The position numbers and the translations under genes are program-made. Source: a virus (lineage: Duplodnaviria; Caudoviricetes). From it: a stretch of 64,000 bases of DNA. This document shows positions 28,282-55,030 of the stretch, piece by piece (positions within the stretch are counted from its first letter, which is position 1; the number at the start of each line of letters is the position of its first letter). Where the stretch lies: positions 989 to 64,988 of IMG/VR virus record IMGVR_UViG_3300046170_000411; one strand, given 5' to 3'. Below the pieces are notes generated by a model. It was given only the letters and a program-made list of their open reading frames with translations, had not been told where the DNA came from and did no database searches.

Positions 28282-30520
28282 CTATTGTATTATTTTACTT
28301 TTTGAACCTTGGTTGTTGTATTTTGAAAACCCAAAGTCTATTTTCTTAACCTGTCTTGCAGTTTTAGACGCGTATAAATGTCTTTGGCATGCCATTATAG
28401 CAAGGCCAGAACTTATAGATGCATCAAACTTTGTTCTTTTATTAATATCAAATTTAGCCCAGTCTTCTAATGTTCTTTGGAAGTACATTCTGCCACAATC
28501 TCCATTTTCTTTTAACCCAACATGAGTTTCAATATAACTTTCAATTGCAGCCGCATGGGCTTGTCTTATATCTTCTGAGGTATTAGGTATACCACCTAAT
28601 TCTCTTTCTGTTACAGATAATTTATTTCTAGGTCTATCGGGTCTATTCATTGAATATCCTCTATAACCTCTTCTTTTAATATGATATAATAATCTAGGTT
28701 TATTATTTTCAGCAAGTATTGGCATACCGTAAAATATCATTGCCATAAGTACATCTTCAAAAAATATTTCAGCTGTTTGTGGTCTAGCAACATATTCTAA
28801 AAAAAATTGGCTAGACGGTACATCTGTGAGCATACTAAATGTAGTAAGCCCGTGAAGTGCACCATTAGATCCGCTACCATCAGTTGTTCCGCTAATATCA
28901 TAGCTATCACAACCAAAGGCACCTAAATCTTTATTGCCTGGGTATTTAATACCGTTTTTTACTATTATATTGTTTTGCATTTCAAAGGGTGGAATCCAGG
29001 ATAATTTAAATCTACCTGTTTTGTTTGGATGAAATTCTACTGTAGAATCTTTAACTCCATTTTTCCAGCTAAATGAACCGCGGGTTACGTAACCTTGCAT
29101 TGTCATTTCTTCATTGAAATCTACTTGTTCGTATATTTTATTTAAATTGAATAAAGACTTTTCTATTTCATCTCTGAAAGCATGCTTTTCGCTTCTTGGA
29201 AACTGTCTATAAAATTCATTTAAAGCATCATTATTCCCTTTGAGTCCATCTGCTTCATTCTCCCAATGATCGATAACTCCATGTCTGATAAGCTCCCCGT
29301 CGATTCCTTCAACAGGTTTTTCTGGATGATCGAATACAGGAAATCCATATTTATCAATGAACCCTTCATAGTTCCACTCCATAGGTATGAACAAAGAGTA
29401 TAGTCCACTAGCAGTCTGCCCATTGCGGTTTCGGTTTTCAACTTTTGAATCATTATATAATTTTTTAAAGTTATTACCACCTTTGTCTAGAGCATTTGAT
29501 GTAGAACCCATCATACACTTGCCAACAACTTTTGCACCTAACCTTAAACAGGTTTTAGTAACACGCCAGTTATTTAATATATTATCGGGCTTTTCCCATT
29601 TACCAGATTCATCGTGAACTAGTAATTTTAGTTTTTCACCATCATAGGAGTTGTCTCCTGTGTTCTTCCAGTCAATTGTAGTGTCCAAGCCCTTCACCAA
29701 CTTGTACTTCGTTTTGATCAGTTGCTTTGAGTGAATTTCTTGTAAGTCTTTTAGACGGTATTTTGTAGGAAAGTTCTGTTTTAGGTCTTTCCATCCCATC
29801 TTGTATTGGTTTAAAGAAGAACGGGTAGTTAATCGATATAGGTACAATCTTGTCGGTAAACATTTTTTTTGCGTCACTACCGCTTTTGGATAATACTCCA
29901 AATCTTGCATCTTTTGATGTTGTAGCTTGATTAACTGTTTCTGCGCTTGCCATAAAGGAGAAGCCACTCCGTCTATTTTTGAGGTAGCACATTCCATAAC
30001 ATCTGTAATCTGCCTTGCAAGCCTCCCAAAAATAAAAGAATATTTTATTTGATTGTCTGAACTCAGGTGCACCGACATCAATTTTTGTCCAGTTAAGGTA
30101 CATGTAATGCGTTCCTGTAATGTAGGTTGCTGTGCCGTTACACATAAACCAGTAGCCATCACTGCGACGATCAAACTCTGAATTAATATACTCGTAATAC
30201 TTTTCTTTAATTTCATCTGGATATAATTGAAAATCATGTATTGATTTAATTTTTGATAGTGTAGTGGGTTTTAAGGTTTGCTTAAAAACTTGATCTTCAG
30301 GTTTTTCGCTATTTGAATATACTTCTTTTGGTATTGCAGGTAGTGCAACACGCAATCCTTGTATTTCAAAAATTTCACCTATAGTTCCATCTTTACTTAT
30401 TACTACACAATCAAGATCGTCATTATAACCGTACTTGTAATTTTTTAGCTTGTTGTTTCTTTTTACATTTTTAGTAGACAAATGCGCAGAGTGTATAGCA
30501 TATAGATTTTGTTTATACAT
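28282..30520 (-). CDS. Terminase large subunit (+1 insertion near 29690)
   Basis: Walker A-like LKNRRSGFS in ORF 29672-30520; Walker B LLVHDESGKW, GSTSN, nuclease GCDSYD, AENNK and FDASISSG in ORF 28282-30237. Confidence 0.9.
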
Positions 30521-43675: not shown

Positions 43676-43935
43676 TACAATACTATTATAACATCTTGCT
43701 CTTGTATAACTTTATAAATATCTTTACCAATTTCTATATTATGCCCAGCATGTCTGTCATAATATATTTTGTCATTTACATTTACACCCTCTACCGCTGT
43801 ACCTACAGAAATAACATCTGCAGTGCGGTATCTTATATCTTCGCGGTGGTTTTCCGCAAGTAGCAGCCCACCGTCTGTTTTCTTTATGTCTTCTTTTATT
43901 TCAGAAATAATAATGTATCTACCTATTGCCTTCAT
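43675..43935 (-). CDS. groES: Co-chaperonin GroES
   Basis: KT.GGLLL mobile loop, VISVG..V..V...DKIYY, I.EQDVI; adjacent to groEL. Confidence 0.85.
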   Translation of the reverse strand: MKAIGRYIIISEIKEDIKKTDGGLLLAENHREDIRYRTADVISVGTAVEGVNVNDKIYYDRHAGHNIEIGKDIYKVIQEQDVIIVL

Positions 43936-45517
43936 TTTCTCTTACGTTTGAAATTACACAATCAGTTGAAAGAATAGTAGTAGCTACAGATATAGCGTTT
44001 TGAAGCGCTGACTTAGTAACAAGAAGAGGATCAATAATACCTGCCTCGCACATATTTTTGATTTTGCCATCTATAACGTCTACGCCGTGGCATCCTTTTC
44101 CTAAATCAGTATACTCTGCAGAGTTTAATCCCGCGTTACTCAGTATAAGTAAAAAAGGTGCGTATAAAGATTGTTTCAATATACTTACACCTTTGAGCTC
44201 ACCGGGGTTGAGTTTCATTTGCCAGTCAGAGTTTGCTACGTGAACAAGTGCAGAACCACCACCCGGAAGTATACCTTCCTTCTTTGCAGCTCTAACGGCG
44301 TGTATAGCATCGTCAACTCTATCTTTCTTTTCTGAAACTTCAACATCTGTATCTCCGCCTACATATACTATAGAAACTCCGCCTGACAATATGGCCAATC
44401 GGTTTTCTAAATGAGGTCGCATTACATGGTGCTCTTCTTCATCTAGCTGCGCTTTTAAATAATCAACGCGTTCTGTAACTTCTTGTGATACCTCTTTTAT
44501 AGCAAGAGTAGTACCATCATTATCTATGATAGCCTTATCGGCCTGTCCTAACACTTCTGGGGTGATGTTATCTAATGAGTCACCTAAGTTCTCATCAATA
44601 ACAGTAGCACCCGTTAGAAGGGCAATATCATCTAGTATGTCCTTACGCTTCAGCCCAAACGACGGAGGATCTATGATATTACACTTAATATTGCCCTTTA
44701 CGTGATTCATTGCTAAAGCTGACACTACCTGCTGTTCGCAAGGGGCAATAAGCAATAACGATCTGTTGGACTTGATCGCATGCTCTAGTATTGTTTGTAT
44801 TCTTCTTATATTAGTTACTTCAGACGCACATAAGAATACTAATGGCTTGTCTAGTTCACTTACTTCTTTTTCTCTATTAGTATAGAAGTGTATACTTTTC
44901 GATGTAGCATTAATATGAGTTCCATCTACTACATCTATGTATGTTTCATTTGACGGGGAGGTTTCCATTGTAACCACTCCGTTATCTCCCGCAGATTTAA
45001 ATGCTTCTGCTATGAAGTCACCAAGCTCAGTGTCATTATTGGCTGATATTCTAGAAACTTGGTTTAATCTTTTATCATCAACGGGAACACTTCTTTTTTC
45101 TAATTCTTTTATGATATGCTTTGCAAAAGCTGAAATACCATTTTTAATATCTCTAAAAGAATATTCTTCTCCCTTTTGATTAAAGTAGTTATGAATTATA
45201 GCTTGCGCTAATACTGTTGAGGTTGTTGTGCCATCACCTGCCTTAGATGCAGTTTGGCGAGAAGCTTGCTTAAGCATAGTAACACCCAGGTTTTCTACTG
45301 GGTCTTCTAAATTAATGTAGTTTGCTACAGTAACCCCGTCTTTAGTTACGTGTGGGTTACCAAAGTCATCTTCAAGAACTACCGTTCTTCCCGATGCACC
45401 GAGTGTACTACCTACTGCTTTTGCTAGTTTATTAATGCCGTCTATTAGTTTTTGCTTAGCATCTGTACCGAAGCTAAGTTCTTTAACTATTTTAGGCGAT
45501 CCGAATTGTATTGCCAT
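43919..45517 (-). CDS. groEL: Chaperonin GroEL (no GGM tail)
   Basis: TLGASGR.V, TKDGVTVA, AGDGTTTSTVLA, EKKDRVDDA, GILPGGG, GIIDP..VTKSALQNA. Confidence 0.96.
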   Translation of the reverse strand: MAIQFGSPKIVKELSFGTDAKQKLIDGINKLAKAVGSTLGASGRTVVLEDDFGNPHVTKDGVTVANYINLEDPVENLGVTMLKQASRQTASKAGDGTTTSTVLAQAIIHNYFNQKGEEYSFRDIKNGISAFAKHIIKELEKRSVPVDDKRLNQVSRISANNDTELGDFIAEAFKSAGDNGVVTMETSPSNETYIDVVDGTHINATSKSIHFYTNREKEVSELDKPLVFLCASEVTNIRRIQTILEHAIKSNRSLLLIAPCEQQVVSALAMNHVKGNIKCNIIDPPSFGLKRKDILDDIALLTGATVIDENLGDSLDNITPEVLGQADKAIIDNDGTTLAIKEVSQEVTERVDYLKAQLDEEEHHVMRPHLENRLAILSGGVSIVYVGGDTDVEVSEKKDRVDDAIHAVRAAKKEGILPGGGSALVHVANSDWQMKLNPGELKGVSILKQSLYAPFLLILSNAGLNSAEYTDLGKGCHGVDVIDGKIKNMCEAGIIDPLLVTKSALQNAISVATTILSTDCVISNVRENEGNR

Positions 45518-49964: not shown

Positions 49965-50184
49965 ATGTCAAATTTAAAACACTTAAAAACTAATCATTAT
50001 AAAAGTAAACTTTTAAAAGTATAAAAAACTAAAATTTAATAATACAACTTATTTAGGTTTTAATATAAATGATTTGTTTCAACTAAAAGAATTTATTAAA
50101 AATAGTAATATAGTAGAATTTACTAACAAAGGTTTAAGTTATATAAATAAAAATAATTTAAAAAGTACGTTACAAAACATATAA
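49965..50184 (+). CDS. First early small protein (probable +1 insertion near 50017)
   Basis: MSNLKHLKTNHYKSKLL joins KYKKLKFNNTTYLGFN...STLQNI* after removing one A. Confidence 0.4.
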
Positions 50185-50199
50185 TAAAGTGATAATATA
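50166..50199 (+). promoter_or_regulatory. Class-1 (early) promoter candidate, copy 2
   Basis: TACGTTACAAA-N12-GTGATAATATA. Confidence 0.75.
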
Positions 50200-50522
50200 A
50201 ATGTAAATAAAATGTGTGTGTTATAAAAATTATTCTCTACACTATAAATAAAGTTGAATAAATGAAATTAATTTAAAAATAAATAATATGAAAAATAATA
50301 AAATCCACTTTGTAACTTTTGATAATAAATTAAATAAATTAAATTCTAAAGAATTATTAAACTTTTACAATAACATAAATAAAAATCTAACAAAATGAAA
50401 TTAAATAAAATAATACAAAGTTATAAAAATACAAATATGAATAAAGAATTGTTAAGTTATAAATTAAAAAATTATTATAACTTAAATGAAAATGAAAGAA
50501 TAATTATTAAACATAGTATATA

Positions 50523-50735
50523 ATGAAAAGATTTTGTTGGAATGTAGAAACTATAGATTTTTTTCAACTATTAAAAAATAGTGAAGGAAATGAAAAAATG
50601 AAAGAAAGTGTAGAAATGTTTGTTTATAATGAATGTGATTTAGAAGATAATGAAAGTTATGAAGATTTAATTAAAGATTTATTATATCAAATTGAAAATA
50701 CAACTTTAGAAGAAATAGAAAATTTAAAAAAATAA
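50523..50735 (+). CDS. Small acidic early protein
   Basis: 70-aa ORF with A-rich start context. Confidence 0.6.
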   Translation: MKRFCWNVETIDFFQLLKNSEGNEKMKESVEMFVYNECDLEDNESYEDLIKDLLYQIENTTLEEIENLKK

Positions 50736-51046
50736 AAATTATGTTAAATAAAAAAGAAATTAAAAAAGATATTAAACAACTATTAATGTTCCATGACATT
50801 GATGAATTTAGTAATGAAGATTATAAATATCTAGTAAATAATATTGTTGAATATATTACAGATGATGTAATAAAAAAATAAAAATATGAAAGTAGAATTA
50901 ACACAAAAAGAAATTGATAGATTATATTTTGATCTTAAAAATTATGTAAAGACATTATATAATGTTGATAAATTAAATGAATTATCCGAAAGTGATAAAG
51001 AAGAATGTAAAATTGAATTAAACTTAATAGAAAAATTTAGTAAACT

Positions 51047-51250
51047 ATGAATAAATATTTAATAATTTTAGGTTTAGAAGCATTGTTAGAACAATTAGTT
51101 GATTCAAGAGAAAATTCTAATGATTATAAAGAAAGAATAAAAGAAATTGAAGAACAAATTAATATAATGAAAAAATATAAATTTGATTATAATTTCCCAA
51201 ACCCAATTGACGGATCAAATGATTCAATTTTAATATATAAAAATAAATAA
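51047..51250 (+). CDS. Small early protein
   Basis: 67-aa ORF in the early cluster. Confidence 0.55.
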   Translation: MNKYLIILGLEALLEQLVDSRENSNDYKERIKEIEEQINIMKKYKFDYNFPNPIDGSNDSILIYKNK

Positions 51251-51395
51251 TATGATGATAATAAATAAAATAACAGGTAGAGATATCACAAGTGAGTATT
51301 TAGGTTTAATGGAAAAGTTAATAACAAATGAAGAGTTTGAAACAATTACATTAACTCCGGGAAAAACTGGAAGTTGTGAATTATTTAATTAAAAA

Positions 51396-51429
51396 TACGT
51401 TACAAAACAAATTAATAAGTGATAATATA
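51396..51429 (+). promoter_or_regulatory. Class-1 (early) promoter candidate, copy 3
   Basis: TACGTTACAAA-N12-GTGATAATATA, 15 nt before an ATG. Confidence 0.75.
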
Positions 51430-51444
51430 TATAAATAAAATAAA

Positions 51445-51636
51445 ATGATACAATTAACAAAACAAATGATTGACGATAAATTAAAACAAATTGCTATACA
51501 CGAAAAGCGATTTGGCGAATGCACAACAACCAGAGCAATGAAAAAATATTGCACAAATGAAATGTACAGACAAAATGTAAATGCTTTTAACAAAGCAAGT
51601 GGTGAAACAATTAAAAATTATGTAAGATATGTATAG
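51445..51636 (+). CDS. Small early protein
   Basis: 63-aa ORF directly after promoter copy 3. Confidence 0.6.
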   Translation: MIQLTKQMIDDKLKQIAIHEKRFGECTTTRAMKKYCTNEMYRQNVNAFNKASGETIKNYVRYV

Positions 51637-51943
51637 AGATGATTTAGTATATGATTTCAATGAAGAAATGTGGAACTTATACCATAATGGTACAATTGAT
51701 AATATTGATGATTTTTGGAATGAAAAAAATACATGGATCGATAATCAAGTAATATATACATATGAATGTAAACAAATATGCGATAAATTAGATTATGATA
51801 TATTTGAAGAACATGATATTTATGGTAAAGCAAATAACTGGTCTCAAGCTGCGTATGCTGCAATATATGATTTACTTAACGACCACAATGATGCATTAAC
51901 TTATGATGAAATGAAATTACAAGAAGAAGAAGCAAATGCATAA
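51629..51943 (+). CDS. Ocr-like acidic DNA-mimic candidate
   Basis: About 25 D/E versus 6 K/R in 104 aa; IDNIDDF...IDNQVIYTY...AAIYDLL aligns by eye with T7 gp0.3. Confidence 0.5.
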   Translation: MYRDDLVYDFNEEMWNLYHNGTIDNIDDFWNEKNTWIDNQVIYTYECKQICDKLDYDIFEEHDIYGKANNWSQAAYAAIYDLLNDHNDALTYDEMKLQEEEANA

Positions 51944-52042
51944 AGTTTGGAGATTATATTTAATAGATAATAAAAGTATAACTGAAATAAGTAAACAATT
52001 AAATATTACAAAAAATAAATTAAAAACACAATACGGATTAAA

Positions 52043-52886: not shown

Positions 52887-53078
52887 ATGAAATATTGTAA
52901 ATGCGGTAATGAAGTACATCCTGTTCGAATTGAAATGGGTTATAAAAATTGTGTGCAATGCTCTGATACACAGTTATATAGTTATGTACCAATCATTGCA
53001 AACAAACAAGTACTAGAAGTACAAATCGTTGATCAAGCTACAAGTGCAAATGTTCACAGAGCTTGGCGACGCAAATAA
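52887..53078 (+). CDS. DksA/TraR-type C4 zinc-finger protein
   Basis: CKCG.EV...R.....NCVQCS. Confidence 0.55.
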   Translation: MKYCKCGNEVHPVRIEMGYKNCVQCSDTQLYSYVPIIANKQVLEVQIVDQATSANVHRAWRRK

Positions 53079-53160
53079 AATATTAACGACACCGAAGGAA
53101 TGCTGACGAGCAATATATACTAGTTAAAAAGACAGGTAATGAGCTGCGCCTTCGGCCACT

Positions 53161-53239
53161 GGGCGTGACGGGTAAGTGCTGACAAAGTTCGAAAGTACAC
53201 TATCAGCAAACGGAGGTTCGACTCCTCCCACGTCCACTA
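53161..53239 (+). ncRNA. tRNA-like RNA resembling the tmRNA tRNA-like domain (G3.U70, A73), lacking D-stem, anticodon loop and tag ORF
   Basis: GGGCGTG/CACGTCC-A acceptor stem; GGAGG-TTCGACT-CCTCC T arm; TGCTGA/TCAGCA central helix; intergenic GC-rich island. Confidence 0.65.
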
Positions 53240-53249
53240 AATTAAAATT

Positions 53250-53492
53250 ATGACTAAAAAACAAATTGACTTGAGAATTGAATCAAAACTGATTGGCAAA
53301 ATGGCTAATCATAGGTTAATGGCACGTGATCTATTTAGAAAACGGCACAAAGGTGCATTTCCAGAATTAAATGTAAATCAATGTATGTATCATCTAAACG
53401 AACTTAGAGTGTGGAAACGTATTGCTGAACTTGTAGATAACACAAATTCTATACCTTATGAAACTTATTATGCAAACGAATTAACTAAATAA
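53250..53492 (+). CDS. Hypothetical protein
   Basis: 80-aa ORF with A-rich start. Confidence 0.55.
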   Translation: MTKKQIDLRIESKLIGKMANHRLMARDLFRKRHKGAFPELNVNQCMYHLNELRVWKRIAELVDNTNSIPYETYYANELTK

Positions 53493-53498
53493 ATATAT

Positions 53499-53819
53499 AT
53501 GACTGCAATTGAAAAATTACAAAACAAACTAAACATTGAAATTGATGAAACATACAGATATAATTTGTATGATCTTGAAGTATCAACCTACAATACGGCT
53601 GATGGCTACGAAGTATATGTTATGAACAGTACTCCATTTGAAAATAACCTTGATTGGGAGAATGATGTATTTTATTATCAACCATCATTTGATGACATTA
53701 TGTCACGTATTATGGAATTAGATCCTGACTCTAAAGTATATATTGATGACATTGAAGAGTATATGCCTGAATATGAAATTGAACAATGGATTAACGACAA
53801 CGAAGATACAGATGACTAA
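53499..53819 (+). CDS. Highly acidic hypothetical protein
   Basis: 106 aa, D/E- and Tyr-rich. Confidence 0.6.
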   Translation: MTAIEKLQNKLNIEIDETYRYNLYDLEVSTYNTADGYEVYVMNSTPFENNLDWENDVFYYQPSFDDIMSRIMELDPDSKVYIDDIEEYMPEYEIEQWINDNEDTDD

Positions 53820-54117
53820 CGAACAATTAGAGCAGCTTGCTCAGCTTATTGCAGACAAAGTTACCGATAAGCTTGAAAAACTTTTTGAAGAAGAACCACC
53901 TGCTCCTACATGGCCAATGAGTCCTCAAGAGTTTTTTCATCATCAAGTTGATGGTTTTGGTAACATAAAACATTTTAGCCGCAAAGATTTGCTATACACC
54001 CAACTTCAACAATTAGACGAACAAAGAGCAAAATTATTAGCTGAAGAAAAATATGAATTATTAATTGAATTAGAAGAAATTTATGAAAAACTTAAAAAAG
54101 AGCATGACAAACTTTAA
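53812..54117 (+). CDS. Hypothetical helical protein
   Basis: Probable start MTNEQLEQ overlapping the upstream ORF; UVR-like EEKYE C-terminus. Confidence 0.55.
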   Translation: MTNEQLEQLAQLIADKVTDKLEKLFEEEPPAPTWPMSPQEFFHHQVDGFGNIKHFSRKDLLYTQLQQLDEQRAKLLAEEKYELLIELEEIYEKLKKEHDKL

Positions 54118-54198
54118 TAAATTAGTAAAAACTTAAATAACAATATCACAATTTAACAAATTAACAAAAAACTTAAATAGCAATATGACAAACTTTAA
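54084..54198 (+). repeat. Three imperfect ~40-bp tandem repeats upstream of the ligase gene
   Basis: AAAAACTTAAA at about 54086, 54127 and 54167; ATGACAAACTTTAA at 54104 and 54185. Confidence 0.65.
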
Positions 54199-55030
54199 AC
54201 CAATGCTGGCACACCCAGTATCAAAACAAATCAACTATGATCAAACATTATTTATTCAACCCAAGCTCGACGGTGTTCGCTGCTACATTACAGCCGATGG
54301 AGCATTTAGCAGAAACGGTAAGCAATTCTACAATTGTAAACATATACTCACTGAGCTTAAGCCACTCTTTGCCGATAATCCTTATCTTATTCTTGATGGC
54401 GAGCTTTATAATCATAAGTTCAAAAACAACTTCAACAAAATAATTTCACTTGTCCGCAAGCAAAAACCTACGCAACAAGATAAATTTGAAGCAGCAAGTT
54501 ATTTGCAATTCCATTGCTACGATTTATTTGAAACAACAAGCTTTTCTAATGTTGATTTTATTGATCGTACACTTGCTATTACAAATCTTAAAAGCAAATA
54601 CAAACTTAAGTTCACTCACGAAGTTGATACTAAAGTTATTTACTCAGAAACTGAACTAAACAAATTTCACAAACAAAACAAAGCAAACGGCTACGAAGGC
54701 TCTATGCTCAGACAAAACAAACCTTATGAACAAAAACGAAGTTACACACTACAAAAAGTCAAAGATTGGTCGGACACCGAGATCACAATCACTGGTTACA
54801 TTGAAGGCCGTGGCAAATTCAAAAACGGTCTTGGCAAATTCATCGGTGTTGATTCAGACAATCGAGTAGTTGAAGTGCCTTGGCCATCACTTACAATACA
54901 AAAGCGTAAAGATATTTGGGCTGCACGCGGTTATTTTATTAATAAACAATTAACATTCGAGTACTTCGAGCGTACACCATCTGGCGCATATCGTTTCCCT
55001 CGAGCTAAAACAATTCGTAATTATGAGTAA
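54185..55030 (+). CDS. ATP-dependent DNA ligase
   Basis: PMLA, QPKLDGVRC, LDGELY, YEGSMLR, KRS..LQKVK, RFP motifs. Confidence 0.93.
   Translation: MTNFKPMLAHPVSKQINYDQTLFIQPKLDGVRCYITADGAFSRNGKQFYNCKHILTELKPLFADNPYLILDGELYNHKFKNNFNKIISLVRKQKPTQQDKFEAASYLQFHCYDLFETTSFSNVDFIDRTLAITNLKSKYKLKFTHEVDTKVIYSETELNKFHKQNKANGYEGSMLRQNKPYEQKRSYTLQKVKDWSDTEITITGYIEGRGKFKNGLGKFIGVDSDNRVVEVPWPSLTIQKRKDIWAARGYFINKQLTFEYFERTPSGAYRFPRAKTIRNYE

Follow-up and report, generated by a model that had tools for sequence, protein, structure and literature searches.

What kind of RNA does a marine phage encode at a locus that carries the acceptor end and T arm of an alanine tRNA and, between them, neither a D stem nor an anticodon arm? 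The locus lies on the + strand of the window, by which we mean the whole stretch of DNA analysed, 64,000 nt from an IMG/VR virus record of 64,988 bases. The initial annotation, made from the letters alone, had described a minimal alanine-identity RNA resembling the tRNA-like domain of tmRNA without its mRNA domain. Its coordinates and every structural element that it listed at 53161–53239 (+) agree with the sequence base for base (Table 1), and the element is present in the window in one copy only.

Table 1. Features of the mini-tmRNA locus; positions are those of the window unless a related locus is named.
Feature	Position	Strand	Basis or remark
Tag-less mini-tmRNA body (TLD-only RNA), 76 nt, G1 to discriminator A	53161–53236	+	Sequence, fold
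Acceptor stem, 5' strand GGGCGTG; G3 = 53163	53161–53167	+	Pairs with 53229–53235
D-loop ACGGGTAAG, 9 nt, stemless, conserved GG inside	53168–53176	+	Unpaired in fold
Arm at helix-2 position: 6-bp stem TGCTGA/TCAGCA around 20-nt module	53177–53208	+	Fold, covariation
Arm stem strands TGCTGA and TCAGCA	53177–53182 and 53203–53208	+	Sequence
20-nt module CAAAGTTCGAAAGTACACTA inside arm	53183–53202	+	Single copy in window
Linker AAC, 3 nt, 5' of T stem	53209–53211	+	Sequence
T arm GGAGG/TTCGACT/CCTCC	53212–53228	+	Sequence, fold
Acceptor stem, 3' strand CACGTCC; U70 = 53233; with discriminator A, 53236	53229–53236	+	
3' trailer CTA; CCA not encoded	53237–53239	+	Sequence
Zinc-ribbon ORF P0001, 63 aa, syntenic partner upstream of RNA	52887–53078	+	Translation, homologues in relatives
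Spacer, 82 nt, ORF stop codon to RNA	53079–53160	+	Absent in L003, L004, L006
tRNA-Met(CAT) gene downstream of RNA in related loci	L004 1525–1598; L026 615–688; L281, L292, L298, L307, L313, L314, L318, L324		

Folded by minimum free energy, the 76 nt adopt precisely the structure described (−25.5 kcal/mol, z = −2.5), and only 1 of 200 shuffles of the element folds equally well. The acceptor stem contains 7 bp, the third of which, G.T in the DNA, corresponds to G3.U70. The 'ACG' that enters the T stem agrees with the consensus of the tmRNA model, and GGT.AG of the D-loop is kept across alignments of relatives. The arm helix enclosing 20 nt is present as originally claimed, but its loop is not open: the fold places in it a 4x4 internal loop, CAAA/ACUA, followed by a GUUC/GUAC stem of four pairs (including a U.U mismatch) that is capped by GAAA. 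In the tag frame test, no frame meets a stop codon inside the 76-nt body. A tag reading frame running through the arm was considered and rejected: the stop of the only long frame lies past the mature 3' end.

Standard gene finders are silent at this locus. ARAGORN reports 0 tRNA or tmRNA genes in the window, and Rfam at the gathering threshold returns no match there. When the element is scanned alone, the best family of its clan is tmRNA (RF00023), ahead of the tRNA model RF00005, at 22.8 bits against a gathering cut-off of 47. The RF00023 alignment spans model positions 1 to 374, with 326 positions deleted and 39 nt in their place. The same element in five related genomes scores 24.8–37.8 bits, and 12 of 20 other loci align end to end at 20.6–47.7 bits, one of them at the cut-off; in one relative, L136, the tRNA model scores above the tmRNA model (30.5 bits). 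Because sub-threshold RF00023 matches also occur in archaeal control genomes, which have no tmRNA, such a score reveals a tRNA-like top half, not tmRNA ancestry.

It is the anatomy that points to the head of a tmRNA rather than to a tRNA: there is no D stem and no anticodon arm, the arm exits at the helix-2 position, 'ACG' enters the T stem and the acceptor carries G3.U70. The tmRNA features present are thus the G3.U70 acceptor, the unpaired discriminator, the T arm with its T-loop, the stemless D-loop and helix 2. Of the tRNA cloverleaf, the fold shows the D stem to be missing and a 32-nt arm to replace the anticodon arm. An mRNA-like domain with resume codon and tag frame is absent, the 39 nt between the model ends forming one hairpin, and so are the pseudoknots PK1–PK4, which fall among the 326 deleted RF00023 positions. 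Without tag frame and pseudoknots, the RNA is not a tmRNA in the full sense. Plain sequence comparison adds little: blastn with 201 nt of the locus gave short T-arm matches to tRNAs only, megablast with 2.5 kb against 50,697 phage records gave no match, and neither did blastn with L111, a GC-rich family member.

To find relatives, we used several kinds of search. A 22-mer spanning T arm and acceptor has exact matches in 5 other viral contigs. Pattern scans returned at least 119 stretches for the acceptor, mostly chance matches in GC-rich DNA, and at least 117 for the T arm; sorted by eye and by script, the pattern matches contain several dozen distinct elements that have a common body and different arms of ~20–85 nt. 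A covariance model, R1, derived from 8 sequences that bear the module, gives the window element 109.1 bits and other body types 30–60 bits. As these samples had partly been picked by RNA sequence, we drew an independent one through the upstream protein, consisting of 60 loci that encode a relative of the 63-aa ORF, and scored R1 hits at E ≤ 0.001 as RNAs. Such hits, 35 in all, occur in 34 of the 60 loci, invariably downstream of the ORF and on its strand.

The helices of these RNAs are maintained by compensatory change. In an alignment of 31 sequences, 97.6% of cells pair, and both partners vary in 12 of the 21 pairs; the 32 distinct protein-ascertained rows give 97.1% and 15 of 21. Alignments fitted to the model favour pairing, and the controls still stay far below the observed values: none of 500 shuffles reaches the covariation score, and slid controls pair 35–52% of cells (38–49% in the protein-ascertained alignment). 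All three outer helices covary in relatives. Every pair of the 6-bp arm stem changes on both sides, as illustrated by 53179/53206, which turns from C-G to T-A in L003 and in the RNA-library contigs of X15 and X17, and pairs 2 and 3 of the T stem covary as well (GGAGG, GCAGG, GTAGG, GCGGG and GGCGG). The initial annotation would have been undermined by a lack of compensatory changes in homologs; such changes are found in every helix. We conclude that the element is, with high confidence, a real, conserved and structured RNA gene.

Variants of the scaffold illustrate the breadth of the family. L014 carries two scaffold RNAs with different arms (1660–1753 and 2144–2233), as does L324 (1472–1551 and 1555–1650). 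In L025, a 123-nt version with a long branched arm (1364–1486) lies beside a stand-alone module hairpin. The scaffold RNAs of L306 (1558–1636) and L310 (1492–1570) have no D stem, a long arm, the acceptor GAACATA/TATGTTC and discriminator C, and an RNA of the same design in L159 has a non-alanine acceptor, TAAGAGT/ACTCTTA.

The G3:U70 pair is the main determinant for alanyl-tRNA synthetase (AlaRS) and is sufficient in acceptor minihelices; in tRNA-Ala and alanine acceptor minihelices, it is read together with A73. Among the 32 distinct protein-ascertained rows, pair 3:70 is G.U in 28 and A-U in 4, and never G-C, while at the neighbouring pair 4:69, 16 rows have C-G and 15 have A-U. A wobble that is kept while the next pair flips is as predicted under selection for the AlaRS determinant. 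The alanine identity that had been read from a single sequence is thus retained in relatives found without reference to RNA sequence. G3.U70 is combined with discriminator A in 30 of the 35 hits, and 3 have A3-U70, namely the second copy in L324 and the hits in L306 and L310 with the unrelated acceptor noted above; in the other two hits (L295 and L305), the 5' ends are probably misplaced by the model.

A precedent exists among phages. Mycobacteriophage DS6A has a tmRNA described as 'TLD only' in passages of Hudson, Lau and Williams 2014 (PMC4131195). We located this element at 28478–28560 of JN698994.1, between gp33 and gp34, where it is unannotated. RF00023 aligns to it end to end, also under the cut-off (43.2 bits). 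R1 gives a weak match (19.6 bits, E 0.0011) in which the acceptor and T arm alone align, so that common descent with the window element is not established. The reading of the locus as an alanine-identity tmRNA head lacking the mRNA domain is supported by the end-to-end RF00023 alignment, the DS6A layout and the retention of G3.U70. The description that suits the RNA best is that of a tag-less mini-tmRNA of the DS6A kind, from a marine phage lineage that has many such genes without annotation.

In contrast to the conserved body, the arm is hypervariable among family members. Only 3 of the 60 protein-ascertained loci, 34 of which have the scaffold, contain the window's 20-nt module. An exact search with a 17-mer from the arm returned 20 stretches that represent three settings: the tRNA-like body (8 of 20), the same outer stem and arm with no T arm and no G.U (5 of 20, in 2 sequence variants) and a plain 8-bp hairpin that starts within the zinc-ribbon ORF's stop codon (6 of 20 contigs); the remaining match is due to chance. 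Contigs of the third setting have a separate scaffold RNA with another arm further downstream. The 20 nt are letter-identical across contigs whose zinc-ribbon protein is 59–83% identical to that of the window, an invariance that for the 17 central letters was partly forced because the search required the exact 17-mer. The flanking stems covary in all three settings, and the folds agree; the variants are TGCTGA/TCAGCA, TGTTGA/TCAACA, TGCAAA/TTTGCA, CGCGAA/TTCGC, CCGA/TCGG, GTAGTTAA/TTAACTAC and GTAGCTAG/CTAGCTAC. Module copies reached by other search routes are either identical or nearly so, or entirely different: a 4-nt insertion in L004 adds two pairs to the module stem, the cap changes from GAAA to TAAA in L049, and the first loop base is altered in L026. 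We also considered a preQ1 aptamer, a sarcin-ricin loop, a kink-turn and a CRISPR repeat as identities of the module, and rejected them: Rfam gave no such family at E ≤ 10.

Arms can differ on a given scaffold, as seen in L021 and L135, which combine one scaffold with different inserts. Other arm tips recur in different scaffolds or nested in a longer conserved arm, for example ...AACCGCGGCGAAAGCAAAGGT... and ...CCAGGGT(T/A)TCCCATGG...; the sets comprise L183, L244, L243, L338 and L317; L182, L187, L253 and L298; and L226, L228, L238, L242, L264 and L265. The arms look combinatorial. Since the module stays unchanged and is also found outside the tRNA-like body, titration of SmpB alone leaves the pattern unexplained. 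The irregular 20-nt hairpin probably plays its own role, most likely that of a protein- or RNA-binding site. A search of genome contigs with the 17-mer gave 13 matches, of which 12 have no flanking stem and are attributed to chance. The other, L158, is an 11.8-kb contig of an assembly labelled Rickettsiales; it has an identical copy of the RNA and is 79–85% identical to window positions 53075–54763. L158 probably belongs to a phage and was binned with bacterial contigs, and its label gives no host assignment.

The conserved partner of the RNA is the upstream ORF, P0001. Its product has CxC...CxxC cysteines and a basic C-terminus, and gave no match in Pfam or PHROG. An AlphaFold model (mean pLDDT 79.7, pTM 0.45) compared with the PDB by Foldseek gave no match at E ≤ 0.001. 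The 85 homologues, drawn from ocean surveys, are hypothetical proteins of marine metagenomes, none with a functional name, and of seven neighbouring ORFs searched against Pfam and PHROGs, DNA ligase alone matched. In several relatives, the RNA begins 0–2 nt from the stop codon of the zinc-ribbon ORF or inside it. The TAG stop codon of the ORF supplies G1 of the RNA in L003/L280 and L004/L281, and the RNA starts 0–2 nt past the stop codon in three more relatives. Where G1 lies inside the stop codon, an RNase P cut at G1 would leave the ORF mRNA without a stop codon. A similar overlap, of smpB with ssrA, is mentioned for Carsonella in passages of PMC4131195. The corresponding stretch of the window, 53076–53161, differs in having an intact TAA and the window-specific 82-nt spacer. 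A promoter-like site, TTCACA-17 nt-TAAAAT, lies at 53053–53081 (+), over the end of the ORF and the start of the spacer, ~80 nt before the RNA.

On the 3' side, many relatives have a tRNA-Met(CAT) gene that starts 2 to ~100 nt past the mini-tmRNA; it is present in 8 of the 11 protein-ascertained loci that we scanned and, in the earlier set, at 5 loci. This tRNA looks like an initiator: its 1:72 pair is mismatched, and its anticodon stem has three G-C pairs at the foot. The window itself contains no tRNA gene at all according to ARAGORN, and has no tRNA-Met beside the RNA. CTA follows discriminator A in 33 of 35 family hits, and discriminator C in the other 2; the same trailer is found in 5 of 5 phage tRNA-Met genes and one further tRNA in related loci. 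This A-CTAA 3' context, common to the RNA and the tRNA-Met genes, argues for a common processing route.

The surrounding genome is that of a phage, with genes for portal, large terminase, tail fibres, GroEL, ribonucleotide reductase, thymidylate synthase, MazG, primase/helicase and DNA ligase. The GroEL-type chaperonin (532 aa) is encoded at 43919–45517 (−) and matches phrog_5725 at E 3.7e-135. Two relatives with terminal repeats measure 63 and 68 kb. Searches of the phage's own record and of five related genomes (three being ≥91% complete) revealed neither a full tmRNA nor an SmpB gene, and no integrase was found in three genomes, namely its own record and two complete relatives. The habitat is marine: 20 of the 24 sequencing runs listed, from seawater, marine, viral and coral metagenomes, hold at least part of the stretch.

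The RNA lies on the + strand among small early-type ORFs, past a divergent junction near 49.5–50 kb. Positions 50001–52000 have 19% G+C. On the + strand, the pattern GTTACA-16 nt-GATAAT occurs at four sites (49913, 50169, 51399 and 52353), which may be phage early promoters; a general promoter and terminator scan was uninformative, with 56 promoter-like sites versus 45.6 expected. Assembled contigs from four marine RNA-seq libraries of three studies cover the locus or close relatives, and include the compensated C53179T/G53206A variant; in one of them, X16 (record 11), 53079 is joined to 53161. As these contigs are assemblies, possibly derived from DNA, that give presence and not ends, strand or level, and whose uncovered parts are uninformative, their support for expression is weak.

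How might such an RNA work? From its sequence, we propose a mechanism, at about even probability, in which the RNA would be processed like a tRNA, alanylated and then compete with host tmRNA for SmpB and stalled ribosomes. Transcription on the + strand together with the surrounding small early genes, the step for which there is partial evidence, would be followed by a cut of host RNase P at G1, directed by the tRNA-like acceptor and T arm. The CUA trailer would be trimmed and CCA added, as for the phage's own tRNA genes, and host AlaRS would charge the product via G3.U70 and A73. The elbow of stemless D-loop and T-loop, with the base of the arm, would then bind host SmpB, and EF-Tu would bind the charged acceptor end. 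With no resume codon or tag frame, the RNA could not direct protein tagging, and would hence act as a competitor of host tmRNA for SmpB and stalled ribosomes; as a result, either ssrA tagging would be reduced or the RNA would donate one alanine, the most that it could contribute. The tRNA-like body would also supply processing and stability to the 20-nt hairpin. Of the roles suggested in the initial annotation, namely an SmpB/AlaRS/EF-Tu decoy, a tag-less rescue RNA and a defence decoy, the first has indirect support in print: passages of PMC4131195, citing Mao et al. 2009, describe a molecule similar to that of DS6A as a strong tmRNA inhibitor, perhaps by SmpB titration, and the 2025 tmRNA database paper (PMC11915505) states, in the part that concerns DS6A, that its form inhibits endogenous tmRNA in E. 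coli.

The modularity of the arm invites a different view, in which the hairpin is the functional part, the tRNA-like body serves mainly as a scaffold for processing and stability, and trans-translation would not be targeted. A stable small RNA, cut out of the early transcript by RNase P and 3' trimming, would bind a phage or host factor through its hairpin, possibly the upstream zinc-ribbon protein. The identical 20 nt in three scaffolds (8, 5 and 6 contigs of 20) with agreeing folds, the covarying flanking stems, the different inserts in the one scaffold of L021 and L135, the recurrence of other tips in different scaffolds and the position of the plain hairpin right at the ORF stop codon all speak for it. 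Yet a mere carrier needs no G3.U70, which is kept while 4:69 flips; the body is far commoner (34 of 60 loci) than the module (3 of 60); the invariance of the 17 central letters was partly imposed by the exact-word search; and the hairpin has no known partner, the zinc-ribbon protein having matched nothing in Pfam, PHROG or PDB folds. We therefore regard this explanation as possible but doubtful. An extension of it, which we think improbable, would be a modular RNP system with an alanine-type tRNA-like carrier, the arm as a swappable slot for small RNA modules, of which the 20-nt hairpin would be one that also functions alone, and the zinc-ribbon protein as a dedicated partner. If this were true, tRNA processing, and perhaps ribosome delivery by EF-Tu and SmpB, would deploy RNA 'payloads' against host targets.

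By sequence, competition for SmpB is indistinguishable from a role in counter-defence, in which the RNA would soak up a host anti-phage factor that recognizes tRNA or tmRNA acceptor ends or tRNA-like domains, such as toxins that modify the 3' CCA or proteins with SmpB-like domains, and would thereby protect host and phage tRNAs. The early-gene region, with small ORFs without assigned function around the RNA, would suit such a role, and a hypervariable arm on a conserved body is what an arms race might give; CoCoNuT restriction systems have SmpB-like domains predicted, in passages of PMC11090510, to bind tmRNA-like RNA. However, an RNA that has no anticodon loop cannot decoy anticodon nucleases, and no defence system or target was identified; we consider this explanation rather unlikely. 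Least probable by far is that the locus is a functionless, decaying fragment of tRNA-Ala or tmRNA, for example an attachment-site remnant acquired from a host. Its absence from the calls of ARAGORN and of Rfam at the gathering threshold would fit such an origin, and prophage ssrA fragments are mentioned in passages of PMC9004378. Nevertheless, neither acceptor strand is missing, every helix shows compensatory changes, the place downstream of the same ORF is conserved in 34 of 60 loci, and neither its own record nor two complete relatives contain an integrase; moreover, the only match in a bacterial genome, L158, is a contig 79–85% identical to this phage.

In the IMG/VR sample, a marine phage group commonly has tag-less mini-tmRNAs, which escape both ARAGORN and Rfam at the gathering threshold, while the published phage example is DS6A only. 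If they block or bypass ssrA tagging, phages would have in them a widespread means of attacking a core pathway of bacterial quality control. Two observations go beyond the published description: the hypervariable, modular arm, with the window's 20-nt module present also outside the tRNA-like body, and the association of the RNA with a conserved zinc-ribbon ORF and, in many cases, with a tRNA-Met gene of initiator type. The modularity of the arm and the links to the zinc-ribbon ORF and tRNA-Met gene make the function of the arm directly testable.

With which known systems can this RNA be compared? Alanine tRNAs and acceptor minihelices have G3.U70, A73 and the T arm in common with it; in contrast to tRNA-Ala, the window RNA has no D stem, anticodon stem-loop or anticodon, and ARAGORN reports no tRNA. 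For RNAs of its own kind, the reports found in the literature concern only DS6A, organelles and full-length phage tmRNAs. Phage Melnitz, whose two-piece ssrA is described in passages of PMC9004378, likewise is a marine phage with a trans-translation RNA in its early region, but full-length phage tmRNAs such as this one keep the mRNA-like domain and tag, and ARAGORN detects them. CDS-less tmRNAs have been reported in mitochondria and two plastids, as stated in passages of PMC11915505. According to the same passages, those of jakobid mitochondria and Mallomonadaceae plastids (the latter ~65 bp) likewise have no tag frame, but these organellar RNAs are vertically inherited and co-occur with their own SmpB; we liken them to the window RNA by description. 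The closest counterpart is that of DS6A. Both it and the window RNA are phage-borne, ~80 nt long and annotated in neither genome, with a 7-bp acceptor containing G3.U70, discriminator A followed by CTA, a stemless D-loop, a short helix 2 capped by ~20 nt, a short linker and a T arm, and both have neither tag frame nor pseudoknots. They differ in origin, DS6A being an actinophage with the acceptor GGGGCCG and the window deriving from a marine phage with GGGCGTG, and in the D-loop, which has a GGTCGAC stretch in DS6A and is without it in the window. Finally, the arm module of the window RNA also occurs in scaffolds that are not tRNA-like, a feature not reported for DS6A.
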